A stretch of DNA of 26,367 nt from a virus (IMGVR_UViG_3300017754_002918:1-26367); one strand, 5' to 3'; numbered from the stretch's first letter, positions 1-26,367 are shown. Notes: generated from the letters alone by a model not told the origin. Program-made: numbers and translations.

Positions 1-184
1 GGAGAGCACCAATATCAGCAGCATTATATATACTTGATGACCAACTATAATCATACAAACCATACATAGGAGTCAGTGGTGTTGTTTGAGCATTACCATA
101 AGTACCATCCGATATCGTCACACATGTCTGTGAAGCACAAACAAAAGATATCAACATTAAAATAAAAAGTATAAACCTTCCCAT
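1..184 (-). CDS. Secreted protein, N-terminal part only (runs off window start)
   Basis: Not in the ORF track. ATG at 184, open to base 1: MGRFILFILMLISFVCASQTCVTISDGTYGNAQTTPLTPMYGLYDYSWSSSIYNAADIGAL. Signal-peptide-like N-terminus; the P-x-YG-x-Y-x-YSWS-x-x-IY-x-AA-x-IG pattern recalls N-terminal domains of Bacteroidota surface proteins. Confidence 0.7.
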   Translation of the reverse strand, partial: MGRFILFILMLISFVCASQTCVTISDGTYGNAQTTPLTPMYGLYDYSWSSSIYNAADIGAL

Positions 185-7656: not shown

Positions 7657-7657
7657 A

Positions 7658-7732
7658 AAATGGGGTGGGATTCGAACCCACGGCACGAGGAACTTTACGT
7701 TACCTTTGCTCTACCCCCTGAGCTACCCACAT
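7658..7732 (-). pseudogene. Atypical or degenerate tRNA
   Basis: Good D arm (TAGCTCAGGGGGTAGAGC) and T arm, weak acceptor stem, non-canonical anticodon arm (AGG-T-AAC GTAAA GTT-CCT). Confidence 0.65.
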
Positions 7733-8113: not shown

Positions 8114-9601
8114 CTAATATATTACATAATCCATGTCACCACCCTGAATTATTTTAATTGGGAATCCCCATAAATAATGAATGTGATCCACAATGTCATC
8201 AATTTTATCCATACTTAATTCTTTACCATTAATAGATGTATAATCTAATGTTAATGTTCTGTCACCATAAATATCAACATCAAATACCTGAATGTCAGGG
8301 ACATATCTACTTCTATTATAATTCTCTGATAAAGCCATTCTTATACTTTTATAACCCTCATCATTATGTATTGCATTTATTTCATAATGATCATCATCAT
8401 AATCATCACGTACTTCAAATAACTTCATATCACGAATAACTTTTGGTGATAAATATTGTAATACAAATGATTCATCCCTAAAGTTCTCAACTATATATAA
8501 AAATTGTTCCTTCCAATTACCCTTACCTGCAATGTCGGGGAACCATCTATAATCTTCCTCTGTTGGTTCAAGGGACATCCTTTTAATGTCCTTGAATATA
8601 TTGAACCCTAATGTGTATGGATTCAAACCAGAATAATACTTTGAATCAAATTCTGGTTGGTATATCACATTTGAATGGTGGTGATAAAATTCAGTCATAA
8701 ATCCCTCATCCAAATACCCTTCTTCGTACATCTTATTAATGATCTCAAAGTGGGTAAATGTTGCGGTTCCTTCATTTATTGTTTTAGTTTGTGCTTGTGG
8801 ATAGAAATATTGTGCGGTCTTTCTAACAATCCTAACCAATTCACGTTCCCAAGTTTTTAAGTTTGGTGAGTTCTTCTCAATAAAATAAAGTATATTCTCC
8901 TCCGGTTGTTCGGGAAATCTTTTAATACGTTTTTTTGTTGGTTCGTCCGTCGGTAATGTTCTCCAAATATCATCAACCAATATACGATCATCTTCAATCT
9001 TCTTCTTTAATCTTTCCGCTTCCTCGGATGCTGATAACTTGCTTGGTTTTTTATATTTATCAACACCATAATTCATTAATACGTGACACGAATCCAATAA
9101 TGATTCAACTTCATCATAACCATATTTCTCCTCACATTTCTTAACAAACTTCCTTGCAAAATCCATATAATCAATTATGGAATCAGCATGTGTCCATTGT
9201 TTAAATAAATAATTATTCTTAAAGAAATGGTTATGACCCTGAACATGAGCATAAACCAATAACATCAGACAGGTGTCATTATCTTCTAAATTATATGAAA
9301 TACAAGGATTTGAATTAATTACCATTTCATACGATAACCCCATTCTTCCTTTTTTATAATTATTAGAATTAATAACATAATCCTTCCCAAACTTCCAGTG
9401 ATTATATGATATTGGAAGCCCAATTAATGAATATGCATCCAATAATTGTTCTGATGAAACTATTTCAAATTGATTCGGGTACACATCCAAGTTTAAATGT
9501 TCAACGGATAATCTATCAATTATTTCTGAAAATACTTCAATCGTATCTACATTCCATTCAGACTTTGAAAATAACTTTTTTATTTCTTCCTTAGTTCTCA
9601 T
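8114..9601 (-). CDS. spoVR: SpoVR/YcgB family protein
   Basis: GLPISYNHWKFGK, LSYEMVINSNPCI, AHVQGHNHFFKNN, QYFYPQAQTKTINEGTATF, NPYTLGF. Confidence 0.95.
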   Translation of the reverse strand: MRTKEEIKKLFSKSEWNVDTIEVFSEIIDRLSVEHLNLDVYPNQFEIVSSEQLLDAYSLIGLPISYNHWKFGKDYVINSNNYKKGRMGLSYEMVINSNPCISYNLEDNDTCLMLLVYAHVQGHNHFFKNNYLFKQWTHADSIIDYMDFARKFVKKCEEKYGYDEVESLLDSCHVLMNYGVDKYKKPSKLSASEEAERLKKKIEDDRILVDDIWRTLPTDEPTKKRIKRFPEQPEENILYFIEKNSPNLKTWERELVRIVRKTAQYFYPQAQTKTINEGTATFTHFEIINKMYEEGYLDEGFMTEFYHHHSNVIYQPEFDSKYYSGLNPYTLGFNIFKDIKRMSLEPTEEDYRWFPDIAGKGNWKEQFLYIVENFRDESFVLQYLSPKVIRDMKLFEVRDDYDDDHYEINAIHNDEGYKSIRMALSENYNRSRYVPDIQVFDVDIYGDRTLTLDYTSINGKELSMDKIDDIVDHIHYLWGFPIKIIQGGDMDYVIY

Positions 9602-10865
9602 TCGTTACATTTTTTTTAAAGAAGTCCCTAAATACTTCCCATATTTGATTCACTTCACCAATCTTACCAATTCTAAAGTTCTTATGTTCATTGGCTATCT
9701 TTTTATATGTCTGCCATAAATCACCGTCACTACGTCTTGCTATTTCAATATAAATCATATATTGGATTTTATCAAGTAAGTTCTTTTTTAATATTTCACC
9801 ACATTCTAACGCATCGGTTTGATCCCATACATCACCATCAGACGCTTGTGCTGCATAAATATTCCAATCCTTAGAATAACGCTCTTTAATAATTTTATCC
9901 ATAAGTGCCAATGCATCAAATACAATAGTTCCACCTGTTTCTCTTGAATTAAAAAATTCATCTTCAGATACCTCTTTTGCAACTGTGTGGTGTCTAATAA
10001 ATACGATTTCAATATTTTCATATTGTTTTGATAAAAACATATATAATAACATAAAAAATCGTTTTGCAATGTCCTTCTCCTTCTCCCCCATAGAACCCGA
10101 TATGTCCATTATACAAAACATAACCGCAGATGTTGTTGGAACCGCAACTTTCTCAAAATTATTATATTGCAAATCCACTTCTTCCATAAAAGAAATGGTT
10201 AACTTCATTTTTTTTAGTTTATCAATTTCTTTTAATATTTCAGCAATTTCATCATCACTTAAATCTTCATTATCCAATTTATTTTGAAGTTCTTTTATCT
10301 TCTTATCATAATATAAACCTGAAGCCATCTTCCTTGTTAAGGAATTTTTAAATGATTTTACAACATTCAACCTATTAGGTGATCCGGCATTAGTATAACC
10401 GGCACGTTTTTGTTTGAAGTTAACAATTGAATTCAAATGTTTTTTAACCATATCAGGAAGTTCAAGATCATTGAAGAAGAACTCCATAAATTCATCCTTT
10501 GAAATTGTGATAGTAAAATCATCTTCACCTATTGTCGGATCGTTTGAACCTTTATTACCTTTACCCTTACCATTACCCCCTTGTGGTTTTTTAATTCTAT
10601 CACCAGGGCTATATTCTTTATTACCGGGATTTACTTGACGTTTGTTTCCTGATTCATGATCATAACCAAACTGCGGTTCATTAACCCCTTTAACCGGGAT
10701 TTTAACACCCTTATCTGAAGAAGTTAAATCCTTTACATTTGTATTTTTAATAATGTCAGGTAAAGCTTTTTTAATTTGATCTTCAACCCTTTTGATAAGT
10801 CGCTGACGATTCTCAGACGACTTACCTTTAGGATTATTTCTTCTATCAATAATATTAATTCCCAT
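9591..10865 (-). CDS. yeaH: YeaH/YhbH (UPF0229) vWA-like protein
   Basis: IIDRR-x-NPKGKS-x-ENRQR, AVMFCIMDISGSM (MIDAS DxSxS), VFIRHHT, ETGGT, WNIYAAQASDGD. Confidence 0.95.
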   Translation of the reverse strand: MGINIIDRRNNPKGKSSENRQRLIKRVEDQIKKALPDIIKNTNVKDLTSSDKGVKIPVKGVNEPQFGYDHESGNKRQVNPGNKEYSPGDRIKKPQGGNGKGKGNKGSNDPTIGEDDFTITISKDEFMEFFFNDLELPDMVKKHLNSIVNFKQKRAGYTNAGSPNRLNVVKSFKNSLTRKMASGLYYDKKIKELQNKLDNEDLSDDEIAEILKEIDKLKKMKLTISFMEEVDLQYNNFEKVAVPTTSAVMFCIMDISGSMGEKEKDIAKRFFMLLYMFLSKQYENIEIVFIRHHTVAKEVSEDEFFNSRETGGTIVFDALALMDKIIKERYSKDWNIYAAQASDGDVWDQTDALECGEILKKNLLDKIQYMIYIEIARRSDGDLWQTYKKIANEHKNFRIGKIGEVNQIWEVFRDFFKKNVTNEN

Positions 10866-10866
10866 A

Positions 10867-12789
10867 TTAATTGGATTTTCTAACTCTTAAATACCAGTCA
10901 GTTAATAATTTAATTTGTTTGTTAGTGTAACCACGTTCTTTCATACGTTCAATAAAGTCGGAATGTTTCTTCTCATCATCTTTTGATGTTTTAGTAGAGA
11001 ATGATATAACAGGAATCAAATCTTCAGTTTTAGAGAATATTCGTTTTTCAATTACATTTTTAATCTTCTCATATGAATCCCACTTCGGTGATTCACCATT
11101 CTTAGCTTTATGTCTCAAATAAAATTGAACCAAGTCATTTCTAAAATCTTTTGGATTGGCAATACCAGCCGGTTTCTCAATCTTCTCAAGCTCATCATTC
11201 AATGCACTTCTATCAAATTGTTGTCCCGTTTCAGGATCCCTAAAGTCATTATCTTGACACCAATGATCGGCATATGTAATATATCTTTCAAATAAATTTT
11301 GCCCATATTCTTGATATGAATCAACATATGCTTTTTGAATTTCATCACCAATAAAATCAGAATATTTATGACCCAATGTTGATTTTAAAAGATTTAAATA
11401 AAATTGTTCAACCTCTTTTGGTAACTGAGCCTTAATAATTTCTTGTTCCAACACATAAAATAAATGTACAGGATTCGCAGCAACTTCTTCTGAATCGTGG
11501 TTAAATACTTTGGATAACACCTTGAAAGCGAAACGTGTTGATATCCCATTCATTCCTTCTGTTACACCCGCATCGTCTTTATATTCTTGAAGTGATTTTG
11601 CTTTTGGATCCACCTCTTTTAAATTTTCACCATTATAAACCCTCATTTTTGAGTACATCAAGGAATTCTCAGGTTTTTTAATACGTGTCATTACACAAAA
11701 TTGTGATAACAATTCCAATGTTTGTGGTGCACAAGGCGCATCAGATAAAGATGAATTTTTTAATAATTTTTTATAGATTTCAACTTCTTCATCAACCCTT
11801 AAACAATACGGTACTCTTACAATATAAACACGATCCAAGAACGCTTCGTTCTTTTTATCATTTGAGAATGATTCCCATTCAGACTCATTTGAGTGTGCCA
11901 AAATAATACCTTGGAATGGAATTGCCGGTAAACTTTCAGTTCCATTAAAGTTACCTTCTTGTGTTGCTGTTAATAACGGGTGAAGAACCTTAATTGGTGC
12001 TTTAAACATTTCAACAAATTCCATTAACCCTTGATTTGCTCTACATAACGCCCCTGAATAATTATATGCATCGGCATCATTTTGTGGGAATTCCGCCAAT
12101 TTACGAATATCAACCTTACCAACAAGTGCTGAAATATCTTGGTTGTTCTCATCACCAGGTTCTGTTTTTGCAACCCCAATTTGTGAAGCAATTGACATTT
12201 TTAATTTCCTAACACTAAATTTAGTCACGTCACCACCAAATTCTTCCAATCTTTTGGTTGCCCAAGGTGAAGGACAAGAAGGGACATACATTTTTTGAAT
12301 CCCATATTCCTTCTCCAATTCTGAACGATAAGCAGAGAATAAACCCAATGGATTCTCCCAAACAGGTGATACCTCACCGTTTGCAACCAAAACATAAATA
12401 TAATTTTGTTCCATTAATTGTTTTAGTCGCTCAGCCAATGATGATTTACCACCACCAACAGGTCCCAATAGATAAAGGATTTGTTTCTTCTCCTCAAGTC
12501 CTTGTGCCGCATGTTTAAAAAACGATACAATTTGTTCAATGGTATCTTCCATACCATAAAATTCACTAAACGCAGGATAACGTTTAATAATCTTATTTGA
12601 ATGGATTCTACTCAAACGCTCATCGTGTTTTGTGTCAACAATTTCAGGTTCACCAATCGCCTTTAACATTCGCTCAGCAGGTGACGCATAAATCGTTTTA
12701 TCTTTTTTACAAAGCTTCAAGAATTCTTCAATTGTCATATCATCTTGAACTTGCGCAAAATCATTTTTGATAGTTTTTAATAGGCTCAT
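10867..12789 (-). CDS. prkA: PrkA/YeaG family AAA+ serine kinase/ATPase
   Basis: AAQGLEEKKQILYLLGPVGGGKSSLAE (Walker A), KTEPGDENNQDISALVGKVDIR, EFVEMFKAPIKVLHPLLTATQEG. Confidence 0.97.
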   Translation of the reverse strand: MSLLKTIKNDFAQVQDDMTIEEFLKLCKKDKTIYASPAERMLKAIGEPEIVDTKHDERLSRIHSNKIIKRYPAFSEFYGMEDTIEQIVSFFKHAAQGLEEKKQILYLLGPVGGGKSSLAERLKQLMEQNYIYVLVANGEVSPVWENPLGLFSAYRSELEKEYGIQKMYVPSCPSPWATKRLEEFGGDVTKFSVRKLKMSIASQIGVAKTEPGDENNQDISALVGKVDIRKLAEFPQNDADAYNYSGALCRANQGLMEFVEMFKAPIKVLHPLLTATQEGNFNGTESLPAIPFQGIILAHSNESEWESFSNDKKNEAFLDRVYIVRVPYCLRVDEEVEIYKKLLKNSSLSDAPCAPQTLELLSQFCVMTRIKKPENSLMYSKMRVYNGENLKEVDPKAKSLQEYKDDAGVTEGMNGISTRFAFKVLSKVFNHDSEEVAANPVHLFYVLEQEIIKAQLPKEVEQFYLNLLKSTLGHKYSDFIGDEIQKAYVDSYQEYGQNLFERYITYADHWCQDNDFRDPETGQQFDRSALNDELEKIEKPAGIANPKDFRNDLVQFYLRHKAKNGESPKWDSYEKIKNVIEKRIFSKTEDLIPVISFSTKTSKDDEKKHSDFIERMKERGYTNKQIKLLTDWYLRVRKSN

Positions 12790-13983: not shown

Positions 13984-14532
13984 TTAACTTAAATAATTTG
14001 ACATATTTTTAGCAGCCTTAAAAGCCTCTTTCATATTTTCAATAATTTTTGAACCTCTTAACCTAAATGGGATAACATATGAAATTCCATCTTCATCCAT
14101 CCATTTTTTACCTAATTCATCTTCCGAATCATATAACTCATTAAATCTGGTTTCGTATTCATTCCATTGTTCTTCAGGATAATCTTCTTTAACAGGTTTG
14201 TATTTTGAATCGAACAATCTGTCACCAATTCTAAACATACTACCACCTCTATGCGTATACCCATACATTCCTTCAATCACGGGATTATCAGTTCCATATG
14301 TATCCTCAATAATAACCGCCGCGACACCATGTGGATGTCGTTCATCAATCATCATTTTATTATTTACATACCATCTAGCTTCATCAATACTACCAACATA
14401 TGTTCCATTTGGTGATAGGAATGAATTCTCTAGTGTATGTTCGTTGTTTGGTCCAAATGTGTGTGTCCCAATTTTACCTCCTGTTAATCTTTCAATCTCT
14501 TGGATTTCTTCTTGTGTGATTTCTTTTGTCAT
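13984..14532 (-). CDS. Hypothetical phage protein
   Basis: 182-aa ORF, YGYTHRG...FRIGD motif. Confidence 0.75.
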   Translation of the reverse strand: MTKEITQEEIQEIERLTGGKIGTHTFGPNNEHTLENSFLSPNGTYVGSIDEARWYVNNKMMIDERHPHGVAAVIIEDTYGTDNPVIEGMYGYTHRGGSMFRIGDRLFDSKYKPVKEDYPEEQWNEYETRFNELYDSEDELGKKWMDEDGISYVIPFRLRGSKIIENMKEAFKAAKNMSNYLS

Positions 14533-20359: not shown

Positions 20360-20581
20360 TTAAATTGTATACCTCATCCAACTATCTGTAAAACAACAGT
20401 TGCTGTCAATTCGTTGTGACTCCCCTTAAATTGTATACCTCACCCAACGTGTGGTCATACCCAATGTAACAATAAATGGTTGTGACCCCTCTTAAATTGT
20501 ATACATCACCCAACTACCCAAGTAGTGTTTAACTCTGTTGTTTGAGTTGTGACCCCTCTTAAATTGTATACATCACCCAAC
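20360..20581. CRISPR. CRISPR-like mini-array 1: three full 36-bp repeats, one truncated repeat, three spacers
   Basis: Repeats at 20360-20382 (23-bp partial), 20413-20448 GTTGTGACTCCCCTTAAATTGTATACCTCACCCAAC, 20479-20514 and 20546-20581 GTTGTGACCCCTCTTAAATTGTATACATCACCCAAC. Unique spacers of 30, 30 and 31 bp (20383-20412, 20449-20478, 20515-20545). Confidence 0.85.
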
Positions 20582-20913
20582 CATTCCTTCGTTAAGTCTT
20601 GTATTTCTTTATGATATAGTCCAAAATTAGAACGTAAAAATGACCAAATATCATCATAATCTATGTTAACAATTTCATTTTTTGTATCGTAAATCATAAA
20701 ATTATAACCTTTTTTATAACGAAATAAAATCAAATGTCCTTTCTCTTTTGATTGAACTTGTTCCAAGTCATCAAATAAATGAAGAAAGTCCATCGGAGTT
20801 TCAATATTTAATAATTGACAAAATATATCAAAGTCACCTACCATACTTACAGTATCATTAACACCACTTTCTTTAATATTATCAATTAATGTTATTTCAA
20901 GTTGATTATTCAT
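20506..20913 (-). CDS. Array-associated hypothetical protein, paralog 1 (135 aa; start re-assigned to MNNQLE)
   Basis: 76/100 residues identical (hand count) to the 25995->26367 protein over MVGDF...RGVTT; its C-terminus is encoded by a repeat and a spacer. Confidence 0.85.
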   Translation of the reverse strand: MNNQLEITLIDNIKESGVNDTVSMVGDFDIFCQLLNIETPMDFLHLFDDLEQVQSKEKGHLILFRYKKGYNFMIYDTKNEIVNIDYDDIWSFLRSNFGLYHKEIQDLTKEWLGDVYNLRGVTTQTTELNTTWVVG

Positions 20914-20918
20914 AATAA

Positions 20919-20926
20919 CAAATATA
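20919..20926 (-). promoter_or_regulatory. Bacteroidota -7 promoter element for the gene-array module
   Basis: TATATTTG ending 5 nt before ATG 20913, so the transcript would be near-leaderless; overlaps the tail of the dnaK terminator. Confidence 0.6.
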
Positions 20927-20962
20927 CAAAAAACCCCCATAACAAAAAACAGTCTGGGGGTT
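20927..20962 (-). terminator. dnaK terminator
   Basis: AACCCCCA...TGGGGGTT followed by a T-run. Confidence 0.75.
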
Positions 20963-20971
20963 AATTTAAAA

Positions 20972-22819
20972 TTATTTTACTTCCTCATAGTCAACATCAT
21001 CACCCATCGGTTCTGTTGTTGTTGATTCATACATCTTTTGACTTATTTCATGGAATTTTGAATTCAATTCATCTGTTAAAATTTTAACTTGTTCAATATT
21101 TTTATTTGTGTGTTGTTCTTTTAATTTTTGAATTGATGTTTTTATTTCACCCTTTTGTTCATCAGTTAATTTATCATCCAAATCTTTTAAGTGTTTATCA
21201 GCATTAAACAATGCACTATCAGCTGAATTCATAATATCAGCATCTTCTCTTAATTTCTGATCAGCTTCAGCATTTGCTTCAGCTTCTTGTTTCATCTTCT
21301 CTATTTCTTCTTTTGATAAGCCCGAAGATGATTCAATTCTAATTGATTGTGCTTTATTTGTTCCCTTATCAAGAGCAGAAACATTAATAATACCATTCGC
21401 ATCAATATCAAACGTCACCTCAATTTGTGGAATCCCTCTTTGTGATGGTGGAATCCCATCCAAGTGAAATCTTCCAATCGTTTTATTATCTTTTGCCATT
21501 GCTCGTTCACCTTGTAAAACGTGTATTTCAACGGATGGTTGGTTATCAGATGCTGTTGAAAAGACCTGTGATTTTTTTGTTGGTATTGTTGTGTTTGCGT
21601 CAATTAATTTTGTAAATACACCACCCATTGTTTCAATACCCAATGATAATGGTGTCACATCCAATAATAATACATCTTTAACATCACCAGCCAATACACC
21701 ACCTTGAATTGCTGCCCCCAATGCAACAACTTCATCAGGATTCACACCTTTTGATGGTTCCTTACCAAAGAAGTTTTTAACCGCTTCTTGAATTGTGGGA
21801 ATTCTGGTTGTTCCACCAACCAAAATGATTTCATCAATATCTGTTGTTTTTAACCCAGCATTTTTTAATGCCGTTTTGCATGGTTCAATGGTTCTTTTAA
21901 CCAATTCATCAATAAGTTGTTCAAACTTTGCTCTTGTTAATGTTACAACCAAGTGTTTTGGTATACCATCAACAGGTAACAAATATGGTAAATTTATTTC
22001 AGTAGATGATGTTGATGATAACTCAATTTTTGCCTTCTCTGCAGCTTCCTTTAATCTTTGTAACGCCATTGGATCTTCACTCGGATCAATGTTGTTCTCT
22101 TTTTTAAATTCCTCAACCAAAAAGTTAATGATGGCTTGATCAAAATCATCACCACCCAAATGTGTATCACCATCGGTTGATAGCACCTCAAATACACCAT
22201 CACCCAGTTCCAATACCGAAACATCATGCGTTCCCCCACCGCAGTCAAACACAACCACTTTTGAATCCTTGTTCTTCTTATCTAACCCATATGCCAAAGC
22301 AGCAGCCGTTGGTTCATTGATAATACGTCTAACTTTAAGTCCCGCAATTTCACCAGCTTCTTTTGTTGCTTGTCGTTGCGCATCATTAAAATAAGCAGGT
22401 ACAGTAATAACAGCTTCGGTTACTTCAGACCCCAAATAATCTTCAGCAGTTTGTTTCATCTTTTGTAGAATAACTGCCGATATTTCTTGTGGTGAATATT
22501 CCCTATCATCAATTTTAACTCTTGGTGAATTGTTTTTACCTTTAATAACTGAATAAGGTACACGTTTTAATTCATCTTTTACATCATCATAACTTGAACC
22601 CATAAAACGTTTAACTGATGATATTGTTTTTGTTGGATTGGTAACCGCTTGTCGTTTTGCAGGATCACCAACCTTACGTTCACCTTCACTTATGTACCCA
22701 ACCACAGATGGTGTTGTACGTTTACCTTCCCCATTTGAAATAACCACAGGTTCGTTACCTTCCATTACGGCAACACACGAGTTAGTTGTTCCTAAATCAA
22801 TTCCGATTATTTTACCCAT
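20972..22819 (-). CDS. dnaK: Chaperone DnaK (Hsp70)
   Basis: [64 protein letters not shown]; Bacteroidota-style [10 protein letters not shown] segment. Confidence 0.98.
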
Positions 22820-22902
22820 ACTTTTAATTATTTATTTGTTTATTTAATATTAATGAATTTTAATTCAACACAAATAATAACAAAATCATACCAAAAGGTA
22901 AA

Positions 22903-22936
22903 TACTGACAAAATGTCAGGTTTACTGACAAAATGT
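22903..22936. promoter_or_regulatory. Tandem operator-like sites upstream of dnaK
   Basis: TACTGACAAAATGT at 22903-22916 and 22923-22936 (20-bp period); the first is part of the palindrome CTGACA-AAA-TGTCAG (22905-22919). Confidence 0.65.
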
Positions 22937-22943
22937 ATTAAAA

Positions 22944-22973
22944 ACAAAAAACCCCAAACAAAAGTCTGAGGTT
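22944..22973 (-). terminator. Rho-independent terminator
   Basis: AACCTCAGAC-TTTT-GTTTGGGGTT then TTTTG. Confidence 0.75.
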
Positions 22974-22994
22974 CACATAGTAATAATTATTTTT

Positions 22995-23921
22995 TTACAT
23001 TGCGATAAAATCTTCTAACTTGGTAACCCAATTAATAGTCACAAAATCAGATTCCATACCATTCGCTTGTCTTACTTCTTCTGACGTTAACTCTTTATAA
23101 TTATAATATCGTTGGCTATAAGTGAATCCATTATCTAATAGTTCATCTGATATTTCATCAAAATCATCCATATCAATAGATTCACCAACTTCACTAGATA
23201 TCTTATTACCTATGGTTATAATTTTTTGTGATGTAACATCATAGTATAATTCATCACTATCCACTTCACCATTACCACCACAATAATCACAAGCAAAGTC
23301 ACCAGCACCCTCACAATTATCACATTGTTGGTACCTCTTACCTTCACATTCTGAACATTCAAAATTTCCTATACCACCACACGATGTGCATCTTATGTTA
23401 CCTTCACCATCACAATCATCACAATCCACTTCAATTTGATCACCATCGTCATCATCTTCGGTTTGAGTACCTGAACCATTACAATGTCCACATGTTTCAG
23501 TACCATCACCATAACATTCATCACAATCTACATGTCCATTTCCATCACAACTTCTACAATCAATTTCACCATTATCACAATAATCACAAGAAACATAACC
23601 AGCACCACCACAATCACTACATTCCTCTTTTATATTAACTTCATCATTATACCAATCAATTTCTACAACATACAAATTATTAATATTTCTAATCATATCA
23701 TCTTGTGACATATTGGGATCACTAATAATAAAATAAATGATAAAAATTATTTGAATTCTAGGAACTCCAGAATCTACTTTTGTTAATAATAACTTAGCAT
23801 AATAATCACTATTACAAAATTGATTTATAAATCTAGTAGTAACAAGTGATTTATCAGGATATTCATCCTTTATAAAATCATCCAAAGTTTTTGCAATTGC
23901 ATATAATTTTTTAAATTCCAT
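22995..23921 (-). CDS. Acidic protein with ten DnaJ-type CxxCxGxG zinc-finger repeats, no J domain
   Basis: CSDCGGAG, CDYCDNG, CRSCDGNG, CDECYGDG, CGHCNGSG, CDDCDGEG, CTSCGGIG, CSECEGKR, CDNCEGAG, CDYCGGNG; no HPD motif. Confidence 0.85.
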   Translation of the reverse strand: MEFKKLYAIAKTLDDFIKDEYPDKSLVTTRFINQFCNSDYYAKLLLTKVDSGVPRIQIIFIIYFIISDPNMSQDDMIRNINNLYVVEIDWYNDEVNIKEECSDCGGAGYVSCDYCDNGEIDCRSCDGNGHVDCDECYGDGTETCGHCNGSGTQTEDDDDGDQIEVDCDDCDGEGNIRCTSCGGIGNFECSECEGKRYQQCDNCEGAGDFACDYCGGNGEVDSDELYYDVTSQKIITIGNKISSEVGESIDMDDFDEISDELLDNGFTYSQRYYNYKELTSEEVRQANGMESDFVTINWVTKLEDFIAM

Positions 23922-23946
23922 ATTTATAAATACATCAAAAAAAAGT

Positions 23947-24007
23947 AAACCATAACGGGATTCAAACCCGCACCTAAATTTGTGCTAACCAATTACACCA
24001 TATGGTT
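23947..24007 (-). ncRNA. tRNA-like RNA lacking an anticodon arm (61 nt)
   Basis: Perfect acceptor AACCATA/TATGGTT, D arm GTGT-AATTGGTTA-GCAC, T arm GCGGG-TTTGAAT-CCCGT, only AAATTTAGGT between the D and T arms. Confidence 0.7.
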
Positions 24008-24011
24008 TATC

Positions 24012-24090
24012 TTGTTATTCTTAACTACCGAGTTACTTTATCTTTTTTGCATTTACGGCCGTGTATTAGACAAAAGGGTTAAAATAACAA
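24012..24090 (-). ncRNA. Possible structured RNA immediately 5' of the tRNA-like element
   Basis: Closing stem TTGTTATTTTAAC/GTTAAGAATAACAA; no ORF; ATATTTATA motif at 24109-24117. Confidence 0.4.
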
Positions 24091-24123
24091 ATTCCCTAAG
24101 AGGTTATTTATAAATATCATAAA

Positions 24124-24423
24124 CTATATAATTGAATCCAAACTTTGCACCTCAATCATTAAAAAATTAACCTGTCCCGATGTTAAATGTCCAATTACAT
24201 CATTAGAAATTTCTGTATCATAACAAAGTTCCCAATTGTCGTTATTACCCTTCAATATCGCAACTTCCCATTCATCATCATTTGACGTATATGAACCATA
24301 ACCCCCATGTGATAGTTTAAACCTTACAATAGACACCCCATACCCATTTGGGAAGAAGATTATACCATGTATACCACTACCCGCAGGATGGGGTTTAAAT
24401 TCAACATCATCAATTGATTTCAT
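24124..24423 (-). CDS. Hypothetical phage protein
   Basis: FPNGYGVSIV...WEVAIL...YDTEI..DVIGHL pattern. Confidence 0.8.
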   Translation of the reverse strand: MKSIDDVEFKPHPAGSGIHGIIFFPNGYGVSIVRFKLSHGGYGSYTSNDDEWEVAILKGNNDNWELCYDTEISNDVIGHLTSGQVNFLMIEVQSLDSII

Positions 24424-24512
24424 CTTCTTTTTGTTCGTATTGATTTATATCATTAAGATACACAAAATAATCTTCACTTTGTATAAACTCATAATGTAAT
24501 TGTTCAAAAATA

Positions 24513-24704
24513 TCACACATTAATTCCTATTTTTTTTATTTGAAATGACGCATTACACCTTGAATTGGTTTCTAAATTCTCTTTAATTCTCTCAGCATCA
24601 TAATAATTGTCAAACTCCCAAACTTCATTCTCAACATTCAACAATACCACAGGTAAACTCTTTTTATTCACCCTTGTTTTTACATTTTTTACTATCACAA
24701 ACAT
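24513..24704 (-). CDS. Hypothetical protein
   Basis: 63-aa ORF downstream of a terminator. Confidence 0.65.
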   Translation of the reverse strand: MFVIVKNVKTRVNKKSLPVVLLNVENEVWEFDNYYDAERIKENLETNSRCNASFQIKKIGINV

Positions 24705-24730
24705 AACTCTTTATTTTTATGTAAAACTAA

Positions 24731-24773
24731 CAAAAAAAAGTCCCCCAAACAACTTTTTAAAGGACTTTTTTTG
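24731..24773. terminator. Rho-independent terminator
   Basis: AAAAAAAGTCC...GGACTTTTTTT inverted repeat. Confidence 0.65.
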
Positions 24774-24797
24774 AATTATATAAAAATATTAAGTTTT

Positions 24798-25097
24798 TTA
24801 TGTACCGATAATTAAACCACCCAAGTCAATTCCACCATTTTTATGTATTTGATCTTCAATTTCACCATACATAAAAGATTTAACAACACTAAGAACCATT
24901 TGTTCAGATTGTGCAATTTTTGTTTCCATCCAATCTTCAATCTGCTCACCTTCTTCCATCATTTCCCACATTTTATATGCTAGTGTTGCTATGGTAAATA
25001 ATTGTTGTTTCGCCATATATGATCCTTCTTCATGATCTTCTTTTAACAACTTTACCATTTCTTCAAGTTGTTGTTCTGTTATTAATATCTTCTTCAT
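24798..25097 (-). CDS. Hypothetical protein with N-terminal KKILITEQQL motif
   Basis: Motif shared with other small genes in the window. Confidence 0.75.
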   Translation of the reverse strand: MKKILITEQQLEEMVKLLKEDHEEGSYMAKQQLFTIATLAYKMWEMMEEGEQIEDWMETKIAQSEQMVLSVVKSFMYGEIEDQIHKNGGIDLGGLIIGT

Positions 25098-25363
25098 ATG
25101 AACTTTACTTTAATTTTAAAATCACCATTTCCCTTAATAACCCTATGGAAGGTGTCTTTTGGTATAAATATCACATCACCATCTTTTAAGTCAACAGGTA
25201 GTTTATTATCTTCTTGATATTTCCATCCGTTTGATTCAATAATGGTTATTTCCCTATCTTCACGATCACAGTGCCATTTAAGTTCAAACTCATCAATACT
25301 TCCTTCAAAAATCCTAATCTTTGAATAACCTTTTTTTATTTCTTTAAATGGATATTTTTGCAT
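25094..25363 (-). CDS. Cupin-fold protein (start re-assigned to MQKYPF)
   Basis: WHCDREDR...LKDGDVIFIPKDTFHRVIKG cupin motifs. Confidence 0.7.
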   Translation of the reverse strand: MQKYPFKEIKKGYSKIRIFEGSIDEFELKWHCDREDREITIIESNGWKYQEDNKLPVDLKDGDVIFIPKDTFHRVIKGNGDFKIKVKFI

Positions 25364-25364
25364 G

Positions 25365-25919
25365 TTACCAGTATCCTCCATATGTTTTACCACCCCATAA
25401 ATGCCCATAACGATTGATTCTACACGCCCAATACCCAGCAGTTAATCTATCTTTTTTATCCTTACAATTATGTCTTGATGCAAAATTCCTTCTTGCTTCA
25501 GGGTTAGAAACTTTAGCAGTTAACCCACCCTTTACATCACCAAAAGATATTTTTTTTACTTTACCTGTTGATGGATTTTTAACATAAACATAATATTTTT
25601 TACCTCCACCGGTATTTCTCATTGGTTTGCCCAATTCAACTTTTTTACCTTTATATTCCGCTTCATTAATATCTTCAACAATATATGGTACTTCAAGTCT
25701 AACCATTTCCCCATTTGATAATCTAATCTTTTTACCAAAATCAGATTCAATCAACCACATTTCATCTTCTTCAATATCAACATAACCTGACTTATATAAA
25801 GTTCTAGCTTCATTGATTAAATTAAAAAATTCATCAGAGAAAGGTCTAAAGACATTCTCCGTTAATTTGATACCATTATCTAAATGGTATTTCATTTCTT
25901 CTGTTATTAATATCTTCAT
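25365..25919 (-). CDS. Hypothetical phage protein (N-terminal KILITEE motif, basic C-terminal domain)
   Basis: KKYYVYVKNP...KKISFGD...RRNFASRHNC...AGYWACR basic domain. Confidence 0.75.
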   Translation of the reverse strand: MKILITEEMKYHLDNGIKLTENVFRPFSDEFFNLINEARTLYKSGYVDIEEDEMWLIESDFGKKIRLSNGEMVRLEVPYIVEDINEAEYKGKKVELGKPMRNTGGGKKYYVYVKNPSTGKVKKISFGDVKGGLTAKVSNPEARRNFASRHNCKDKKDRLTAGYWACRINRYGHLWGGKTYGGYW

Positions 25920-25928
25920 ATCTTTATT

Positions 25929-26082
25929 TTAATTTGTATACCTCATCCAACAGCATCTAATGAAACTGGAACCATAACATTGGTGTGATCCCCCTTAAAT
26001 TGTATACCTCATCCAACGTTGATTGAACAACCTGCATTGCGTTGGTGTTGTGACTCCCCTTAAATTGTATACCTCATCCAAC
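25929..26082. CRISPR. CRISPR-like mini-array 2: two full 36-bp repeats, one truncated repeat, two spacers
   Basis: Repeats at 25929-25951 (23-bp partial), 25982-26017 GGTGTGATCCCCCTTAAATTGTATACCTCATCCAAC, 26047-26082 GTTGTGACTCCCCTTAAATTGTATACCTCATCCAAC. Spacers of 30 bp (25952-25981) and 29 bp (26018-26046). Confidence 0.8.
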
Positions 26083-26367
26083 CATTTCTTCGTTAACCCT
26101 TGTGTTTCCTGAAGATTCAAACCAAAATTAGAACGTAAAAATGTCCATATTTCATAATAATTTATATAAACATATTTATTTTTTGTATCGTAAACCATAA
26201 AGTTATGGTTTGGTTTATACCTGAATAAAATCAAGTCTTTATACTCTTTTGATTGAACTTGTTCCAAGTCATCAAATAAATGAAGGAAGTCCATCGGACT
26301 ATTTATATTTAATAATTGACAAAATATGTCAAAGTCGCCAACCATAGATATGGTATCTTTAACACCA
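25995..26367 (-). CDS. Array-associated hypothetical protein, paralog 2 (5' end beyond the window)
   Basis: Frame open to the window edge (GVKDTISMVGDF..., matching GVNDTVSMVGDF of paralog 1); C-terminus encoded by repeat, spacer and part of the next repeat. Confidence 0.85.
   Translation of the reverse strand, partial: GVKDTISMVGDFDIFCQLLNINSPMDFLHLFDDLEQVQSKEYKDLILFRYKPNHNFMVYDTKNKYVYINYYEIWTFLRSNFGLNLQETQGLTKKWLDEVYNLRGVTTPTQCRLFNQRWMRYTI

Follow-up and report, generated by a model that had tools for sequence, protein, structure and literature searches.

The viral contig IMGVR_UViG_3300017754_002918:1-26367 is a piece of about 26 kb from a large, AT-rich freshwater phage that carries nearly all of its genes on the minus strand. 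We analyzed this whole stretch of 26,367 nucleotides (nt), here called the window, and all positions are counted on it. Two minus-strand modules (20360-20913 and 25929->26367) join a small gene to a miniature array of the CRISPR kind. A reading made from the sequence alone had described these modules as sharing one architecture, with repeats of 36 base pairs (bp), five different spacers of 29–31 bp, a truncated last repeat, 76 of 100 identical residues over the alignable part of the proteins, and a -7-type element at the complete gene copy; all of this was borne out by the sequence, the spacers measuring 31, 30, 30, 29, and 30 bp and the alignable part extending from MVGDF to the end of repeat 1 (Table 1). 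The -7 element matches TAnnTTTG, which we take to be the Bacteroidota -7 consensus. The same reading placed a small gene first and an array after it. It did not state that the gene continues into the array: in both modules repeat 1 is coding (W-L-G/D-D/E-V-Y-N-L-R-G-V-T-T), the first spacer keeps the frame, and translation terminates within repeat 2. Its view of gene and array as one unit is upheld.

Table 1. Features of the two gene-array modules in the window
Feature	Position	Strand	Remarks
Module 1 gene, 135 amino acids	20506..20913	-	runs through repeat 1 and spacer S1, stop in repeat 2; belongs to a large family of phage paralogs
TAnnTTTG match	20919..20926	-	5 nt upstream of module 1 start codon; host-type -7 element
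A-tract, module 1	20636..20640	+	+55..59 from gene/repeat junction; same register as host type II-C leaders
Module 1 repeat 1, 36 bp	20546..20581	-	encodes (W)LGDVYNLRGVT(T); growing end of array
Spacer S1, 31 bp	20515..20545	-	newest; in frame as QTTELNTTWV
Module 1 repeat 2	20479..20514	-	contains stop codon of module 1 gene
Spacer S2, 30 bp	20449..20478	-	first spacer in relative L093
Module 1 repeat 3	20413..20448	-	
Spacer S3, 30 bp	20383..20412	-	matches antisense strand of a DegT-family aminotransferase gene
Module 1 last repeat, cut after ~23 nt	20360..20382	-	directly upstream of next gene (RNase H-like, PF04308)
Module 2 gene	25995..26367	-	5' end lost at contig end; reading frame crosses repeat 1 and spacer S4, stop in repeat 2
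A-tract, module 2	26137..26141	+	+55..59 from module 2 junction
Module 2 repeat 1	26047..26082	-	encodes (W)LDEVYNLRGVT(T); 25/36 identical to Cas13b-linked repeat of L418
Spacer S4, 29 bp	26018..26046	-	
Module 2 repeat 2	25982..26017	-	degenerate in last 13 nt (its 3' end)
Spacer S5, 30 bp	25952..25981	-	weak 24/30 match only
Module 2 last repeat, cut	25929..25951	-	10 nt upstream of next gene

The five window spacers are mutually unrelated, as are the spacers we collected from other phages, which also lack any positional consensus. Contigs from other public sequencing runs cover pieces of the arrays with 0–3 differences and carry other spacers at the same sites, ruling out an assembly artefact. 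No RNA data set was listed among the sequencing runs, which carries no information on expression. Tandem duplication of the gene end alone, with no foreign DNA taken up, is ruled out as well, because the spacers are unrelated to one another and match bacterial genes. An Rfam scan returned no CRISPR family.

Modules of this kind recur across a large protein family. A protein search yielded 427 homologs, and among the 120 listed, near-identical bodies carry unrelated tails after the same motif, while some identical tails are found on different bodies. The same tail on proteins with different N-termini (P0018, P0019, P0028, and P0055-P0057; P0013, P0044, P0113, and P0119) points to recombination between paralogs. 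A profile search extended the family to 755 representatives at 50% clustering, the remote ones retaining W-x-x-x-x-Y-x-L but not the other motif residues; two longer proteins, P0183 and P0250, contain five and three matches, respectively, to the C-terminal half of the family profile. We parsed 71 distinct copies in viral contigs and left out two at contig ends; 53 of the remaining 69 have at least one spacer and 16 have none, in a set that is not fully unbiased because one of the three seed patterns held the motif. Homologs followed by arrays, which the sequence-only reading proposed as the pattern to look for, are thus the majority, and their spacers differ between phages. A metagenome scan for repeat-spacer-repeat units, from which two loci belonging to the window's own contig were left out, recovered further arrays with up to six spacers. 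The carrier phages are T4-like (gp23 capsid, S77 prohead protease, portal, sheath) and about 300 kb in size, and one record, G062, contains nine arrays in a single genome. In a quick tree of 184 bodies, many forks of which are unresolved, copies that have no array and a decayed motif lie nested within groups that do have arrays, often on long branches, so the array state looks old and repeatedly lost.

Annotation of the module protein returned no protein family match in Pfam, PHROGs, or PADLOC; no tblastn match in INPHARED; only unnamed viral clusters below 0.9 in the Atlas; and no PDB match at E 0.001. Structural comparison of two AlphaFold models of family members gave a best VIA-align Z of 3.7 for both (root-mean-square deviation 4.5 over 69 and 3.9 over 80 residues), and the BFVD matches, none better than E 0.003, were all to uncharacterised phage proteins. 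None of these searches tied the protein to a known Cas or anti-CRISPR family, and a remote relationship could escape them.

Repeats are constant at 36 bp, and 129 of the 143 unique spacers measure 29–31 bp. Where arrays are nested, they have their gene-distal spacers in common and differ next to the gene, a pattern of polarised growth at the gene-proximal repeat. One locus holds a single spacer (L065) to which a second locus adds one (L043) and a third two more (L059); L205 and L209 have four distal spacers in common; and L093 carries S2 and S3 of the window without S1, which is missing from P0005 too. Loss of first spacers would explain the nested pairs equally well, and it is the stop-codon pattern of later spacers, described below, that argues that each was once first. 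Irregular arrays were also seen. A 102-bp unit with a partial repeat and a partial spacer copy lies between repeats at three loci (L003:6300-6460, L029, and L091) and looks like slipped integration, and a 41-bp spacer at L249:3327-3510 is built of a tandem 10-bp unit.

Stop codons in the spacers are depleted in one frame and over a short distance. In the read-through frame, 4 of 143 spacers have a stop within codons 1–4, compared with 160/715 in the other five frames (p 8e-10); within codons 5–8 the counts are 26/143 and 161/715 (p 0.27). With 77 tails known only from proteins added, stops within codons 1–3 occur in 3 of 220. First and later spacers are alike in this respect (2/78 and 2/65 with a stop in codons 1–4), the result to be expected had every spacer once been first. 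Both AlphaFold models (mean pLDDT, the predicted local distance difference test, of 90) have unrelated tails, and in each the last strand is formed by the last two repeat-coded and the first three spacer-coded residues; the remainder of the tail is disordered in the second. The confinement of stop depletion to one frame and to codons 1–4 says that the protein is probably made through the spacer and that its first spacer-coded residues would be needed. Such a filter is hard to obtain from a protospacer adjacent motif (PAM) or from RNA pairing. A codon model places about 0.4 of spacers in their native frame at the read-through position. The residue composition of the tails has no clear positional bias.

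We then considered where the spacers come from. A spacer-by-spacer search of 1.47 Mb of related phage DNA found no full-length match outside arrays for any of the 143; its 18 rows comprised five that are the spacers' own arrays and 13 partial matches of 18–26 nt. With one spacer of a close relative, an exact scan of 185,579 genomes gave no match, and a degenerate scan of the same genomes gave 21 Bacteroidota matches, the best of them 29/30 in the metagenome-assembled genome M0103. We searched six arrays (23 spacers) against the genus and family of M0103, the latter presumably Crocinitomicaceae. Good matches, none exact, were found for 10 of the 23, all to bacterial genes and on both strands. 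Window spacer S3 matches a DegT-family aminotransferase gene in antisense, at best at 25/26 in the core and 25/30 overall, and does so in 9 of the 54 genomes that represent the likely host genus. The other nine matches are to genes for a dioxygenase (29/30), aspartyl-tRNA synthetase (29/31), Wzt (29/31), an E1 dehydrogenase (27/30), what we take to be a UvrA-like ATPase (28/30), ribosomal L16 (28/29, antisense), SAICAR synthetase (29/31), a photolyase-related gene (28/32), and an OmpA/PD40 gene (27/30, antisense). The idea that all matched spacers are sense proved wrong, as three of the ten are antisense. For S1, S2, and S4 no source was found in the searched host-family genomes, and the weak match of S5 is to an Nfu/NifU-type gene in one genome only. 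The sequence-only reading had looked to the spacers both for sources and for a PAM, and of these the former appeared, as bacterial genes, whereas no PAM emerged from the imperfect matches; what had looked like an A at -7 from the spacer did not hold up.

The phages do not seem to bring their own machinery for insertion. As the sequence-only reading held for cas genes, none of five phage records, among them G062 (rated 100% complete) and G063 (96%), has a Cas1, Cas2, Cas9, Cas13b (NF038190), or reverse transcriptase (PF00078) profile match above cut-off, a search that divergent proteins could escape; NF038190 does detect Cas13b in host-family genomes. Weak Cas9-profile rows span 40–60 positions in frames of 134–185 amino acids and fall below cut-off. 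Pfam, run on 300 of the 365 open reading frames (ORFs) of G062, identified no Cas, integrase, or reverse transcriptase. A retroelement is ruled out, there being no reverse transcriptase match in the five records. These searches bear on the possibility that an unrecognised phage integrase builds the arrays and that the small protein is a mini-effector that binds repeat RNA and thus has guides of its own. Most phage ORFs are without a Pfam family, and Cas1 is rare in the best-matching genus although acquisition is frequent, both of which leave room for an integrase. We nonetheless judge this very improbable: the two genomes rated 96-100% complete lack every one of the profiles sought, the leader register and the repeat both follow host CRISPR elements, as set out below, and many members of the family have no array. 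The mini-effector option, which the sequence-only reading had raised first, found no positive support.

Host genomes offer a closer model for the insertion site. Cas1 is present in 73 of 401 genomes of the host family, from which we recovered 54 type II-C leaders, 44 with repeats of 46–50 bp and 10 with repeats of 36 bp, all with spacers of about 30 bp. Every recovered II-C repeat has GTTGTG at its leader-distal end, and the phage repeat has GTTGTG or GGTGTG at its gene-distal end. In 48 of the 54 leaders an A-tract ends +52..63 nt from the junction. Reading outward from repeat 1, we found an A-tract in the same register within the gene body of every one of the 42 multi-spacer modules (resampling codons according to codon usage gives an expectation of 24.1), of 39 of 44 single-spacer modules, and of 9 of 18 array-less copies (7.7 expected); in module 1 it consists of Ser-Phe-Leu codons when read on the coding strand. 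The claim that there is no separate leader therefore needs to be corrected, in that a leader signal is present and is written within the codons of the gene. A precedent for insertion in trans is the type VI-B array that lacks cas1, has 36-bp repeats, and takes up spacers from a type II-C system, the two types being described as having the GTTGT end and poly(A)/poly(T) leader motifs in common (PMC8092290). In one host-family genome, G129 (L396, L419), a type II-C locus whose repeat measures 47 bp is accompanied by a Cas13b array that has 36-bp repeats and an A-tract at +53..57 in its leader, which suggests that Cas1-Cas2 of the 47-bp class can serve a 36-bp array.

The phage repeat itself resembles one linked to Cas13b, a gene detected above cut-off in 2 of 301 host-family genomes and in 3 in all. 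The repeat of one such locus (L418) is identical at 27/36 positions to the commonest phage form and at 22–25/36 to the window repeats. No near-identical host CRISPR repeat was found in the searched genomes, the true host lying outside the set; the 27/36 of L418 is the best. A scan of 577 kb of phage DNA at >=24/36 turned up 16 sites, every one of them a module repeat (the query was one base off). Differences between phage and L418 repeats are concentrated at positions 8–15, where the inner stem has its 5' arm and the phage has its E-V-Y codons, and the inner stem is broken: predicted folding energies are -0.4 to -3.9 kcal/mol, compared with -9.2 kcal/mol for the L419 repeat.

This resemblance raises the alternative that the arrays make Cas13b-type CRISPR RNA (crRNA) mimics antisense to the gene, either decoys for host Cas13b or Cas9 or guides against host mRNAs, and that the protein simply tolerates insertions. 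Besides the 22–27/36 identity to a Cas13b-linked repeat of the same length, several observations fit. In the direction opposite to the gene, the array opens with the cut repeat and each spacer then precedes a full repeat, as in a spacer-then-repeat crRNA; about 0.7–0.76 of spacers, and 7 of the 10 matched ones, would be complementary to host mRNA in the antisense direction; and arrays of up to six spacers persist. We compared mixture models with the eight identified spacers removed, and frame alone did better than strand alone (log-likelihood gain 9.1 and 7.9 vs 4.0 and 3.0), strand adding only 0.9 and 0.5 to the frame model, so that strand bias contributes little once the read-through frame is modeled. 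The loss of the inner stem, the rarity of Cas13b in the host family, and the lack of a PAM all speak against RNA guides or decoys, as do the location of the arrays between co-oriented genes without a terminator and the frequency of antisense promoter motifs, which is not enriched (4/42 vs 9% background). On balance we find this alternative unlikely.

Beyond the protein it encodes, the repeat is apparently conserved at the DNA level to a degree that the protein would not require. Third-position identity is 0.85 in the repeat and 0.66 in the gene body across 608 pairs with <55% protein identity, pairs that are not independent and come from a set chosen for activity, and rare codons are fixed in repeat 1 (TTG 40/40, TAC 40/40, GTC 30/32, AGG 39/41). 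Conservation of this kind is relevant to the proposal that the arrays are a sink or an accident, either many landing pads that draw Cas1-Cas2 away from host adaptation or a type VI-B repeat that was captured long ago and still attracts insertions, with the tails as tolerated noise. Nine arrays in one genome would suit a sink, and new arrays can arise when integration goes off target (Nivala et al. 2018, as cited in 10.1101/148544). The tails, too, could be noise: beyond codon 4, stops are as frequent as in the background, and residue composition is close to that of control frames. A sink, however, need not sit within a gene, and about one in five random insertions would truncate the strand, so a useless site should vanish through silent changes; instead, the rare repeat 1 codons are fixed across lineages <55% identical, and array-less copies lose the motif on long branches of the quick tree. 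We regard a sink or accident as quite unlikely.

Most members of the family carry an N-terminal leader peptide (77 of the 97 starts that we parsed), which in G062 is linked to a TATTTAT motif. An MK(I/K)IIT(E)-like leader occurs on 38 of the 365 ORFs of this genome (L263-L277), with TATTTAT <=45 nt upstream in 24 of the 38 and in 73 of the 327 others; together they are a possible late promoter and capsid-targeting signal. The peptide recalls the capsid-targeting signals of T4 internal proteins, and by analogy many family members may be delivered in the capsid with phage DNA. Because the module 1 protein lacks the leader peptide and its gene has a host-type -7 match, this copy may be expressed early; sigma-70 promoter counts at module 1 are the same as in shuffles.

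The account that we consider probable is that host Cas1-Cas2 inserts host DNA in trans and that the selected product is a variable protein tail rather than a guide RNA. The 3' end of the gene would double as a CRISPR-like leader and first repeat for host type II-C Cas1-Cas2. During lytic infection, Cas1-Cas2 would take up fragments of the host chromosome and, guided by the leader A-tract and the ends of the repeat just as it is at type VI-B arrays without cas1, integrate pieces of about 30 bp at the phage site; we infer acquisition in trans from this type VI-B precedent (PMC8092290), the leader register, and the likeness of the repeats. Each insertion would give the protein a new C-terminal tail, of which the first three or four spacer-coded residues would complete the last beta-strand and the rest would form a loose tail. 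Insertions with an early stop would be purged, and older spacers would be pushed downstream and deleted by recombination between repeats. The site would be retained since new tails are sometimes useful, a usefulness suggested by the persistence of so costly a site, and copies that lose it would freeze with one tail and diverge. The paralogous family, mostly with a leader peptide, may be packed into the capsid. A bolder version, which we put forward tentatively, is that jumbo phages have turned host CRISPR memory-writing into a generator of peptide libraries by placing a leader and a crippled Cas13b repeat inside capsid-delivered scaffold proteins, whose tails would be selected to inhibit defence or retune binding. 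Of the remaining options in the sequence-only reading, the diversification of tails by spacer insertion is the best supported of its three, through the stop-codon pattern and the AlphaFold models, and a cassette that relies on a host Cas protein is favored as regards acquisition and not clearly as regards guides or decoys.

Several observations weigh against insertion by host Cas1-Cas2 for the sake of the tail. An early stop is present in 4 of the 143 spacers, S3 of the window among them, and what the stop pattern shows is a protein that has to survive insertion, which is not the same as a benefit to the phage. The native-frame share of about 0.4 exceeds the 0.23–0.24 simulated from the observed stop avoidance, which thus accounts for only part of it. 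Tails kept for long change mostly non-synonymously (20 vs 6), which fits drift as well as it fits diversifying selection. As to sources, good matches are missing for 13 of the 23 spacers searched, and the choice of two of the six arrays followed the recognition by eye of host-like peptides; with no exact spacer match, the host species is not in the searched set, and the 10 imperfect matches, which come from non-host relatives, share no PAM motif. As to the machinery, only 1 of the 54 genomes of the best-matching genus has Cas1, with a 47-bp repeat, and the 36-bp host II-C repeats are only 13–15/36 like the phage repeat. Growth of the phage array also takes place at the end opposite to that of type VI-B arrays, provided that L418 has the organisation of L419. 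Finally, the A-tract and conservation counts lack independence because the modules and pairs are related, and the multi-spacer class selects integration-competent sites.

Elsewhere in the window, all on the minus strand, we noted a Pfam match to the Thoeris inhibitor Tad6 (13984-14532; PF25188, E 1e-12) and a PrkA, DUF444, and SpoVR trio in host-like order (8114-12789). A 308-amino-acid protein with many CxxCxGxG repeats lies upstream of dnaK (22995-23921), with weak DnaJ zinc-finger scores only. Two features concern tRNAs: a tRNA directly after tRNA-Ser with a four-base anticodon call (gtaa; 7657-7732) and a 61-nt tRNA-like element whose anticodon arm is nearly gone (23947-24007; Rfam 45 bits), for which ARAGORN makes no call.

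CRISPR adaptation is generally understood as the writing of RNA guides. If the account preferred here, in which host Cas1-Cas2 writes protein tails, is true, a virus uses adaptation enzymes to evolve proteins, by a route distinct from retroelements and inversions, and a leader-repeat junction can be encoded in codons. The arrays would then be a natural record of the hosts infected by a phage lineage, since the spacers point to a host family, would help to establish the requirements of type II-C Cas1-Cas2 at a foreign site, and would suggest a way to build peptide libraries in vivo. The stop-codon test, confined to codons 1–4 in one frame, is a cheap test of the same idea in other gene-fused arrays. 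The function of the arrangement is one that we infer; the host origin of the spacers, the homology of the repeat to a Cas13b repeat, the leader register within codons, and the codon 1–4 filter are what this analysis adds. Searches of openly available full-text literature found no description of spacers read as protein; supplements could list such arrays.

Diversity-generating retroelements and shufflons, like this phage family, combine a constant body with a hypervariable C-terminus. The phage modules differ in having no reverse transcriptase, no template/variable repeat pair, and no inverted cassettes, and in drawing their tails from inserted foreign DNA; their spacers are unrelated to one another and not adenine-mutated copies of a template. 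The mini-arrays of SPV1 and SPV2 are closer, being short, virus-borne, without cas genes, and subject to spacer turnover, with acquisition attributed to host Cas1-Cas2 (PMC6858448, PMC11656645). They are intergenic with a separate leader or none, their repeats are like or identical to those of the host, and they mostly target related viruses, whereas in the phage modules the leader signal and repeat 1 are gene codons, the inner stem of the repeat is lost, the matched spacers are from bacterial genes, and the spacer is in frame and filtered at the protein level. The type VI-B array of Flavobacterium columnare is similar in its 36-bp repeat, spacers of about 30 bp, GTTGT leader-distal end, A-rich leader motif, and lack of its own cas1 and cas2; the phage arrays are distinguished by their viral carrier, the absence of cas13b, a broken stem-loop, no PAM found, fusion to a gene, and a growing end that is probably inverted (PMC8092290). 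Compact arrays, some without cas genes and some with spacers matching host genes, have been reported in phages >200 kb, where they are read as guides and where the sections at hand do not describe fusion to a reading frame (PMC7162821). Neo-CRISPR arrays (Nivala et al. 2018, through its account in 10.1101/148544) likewise show Cas1-Cas2 writing outside a native array; these are laboratory events in E. coli, whereas the phage site is conserved across a family and lies in coding sequence.

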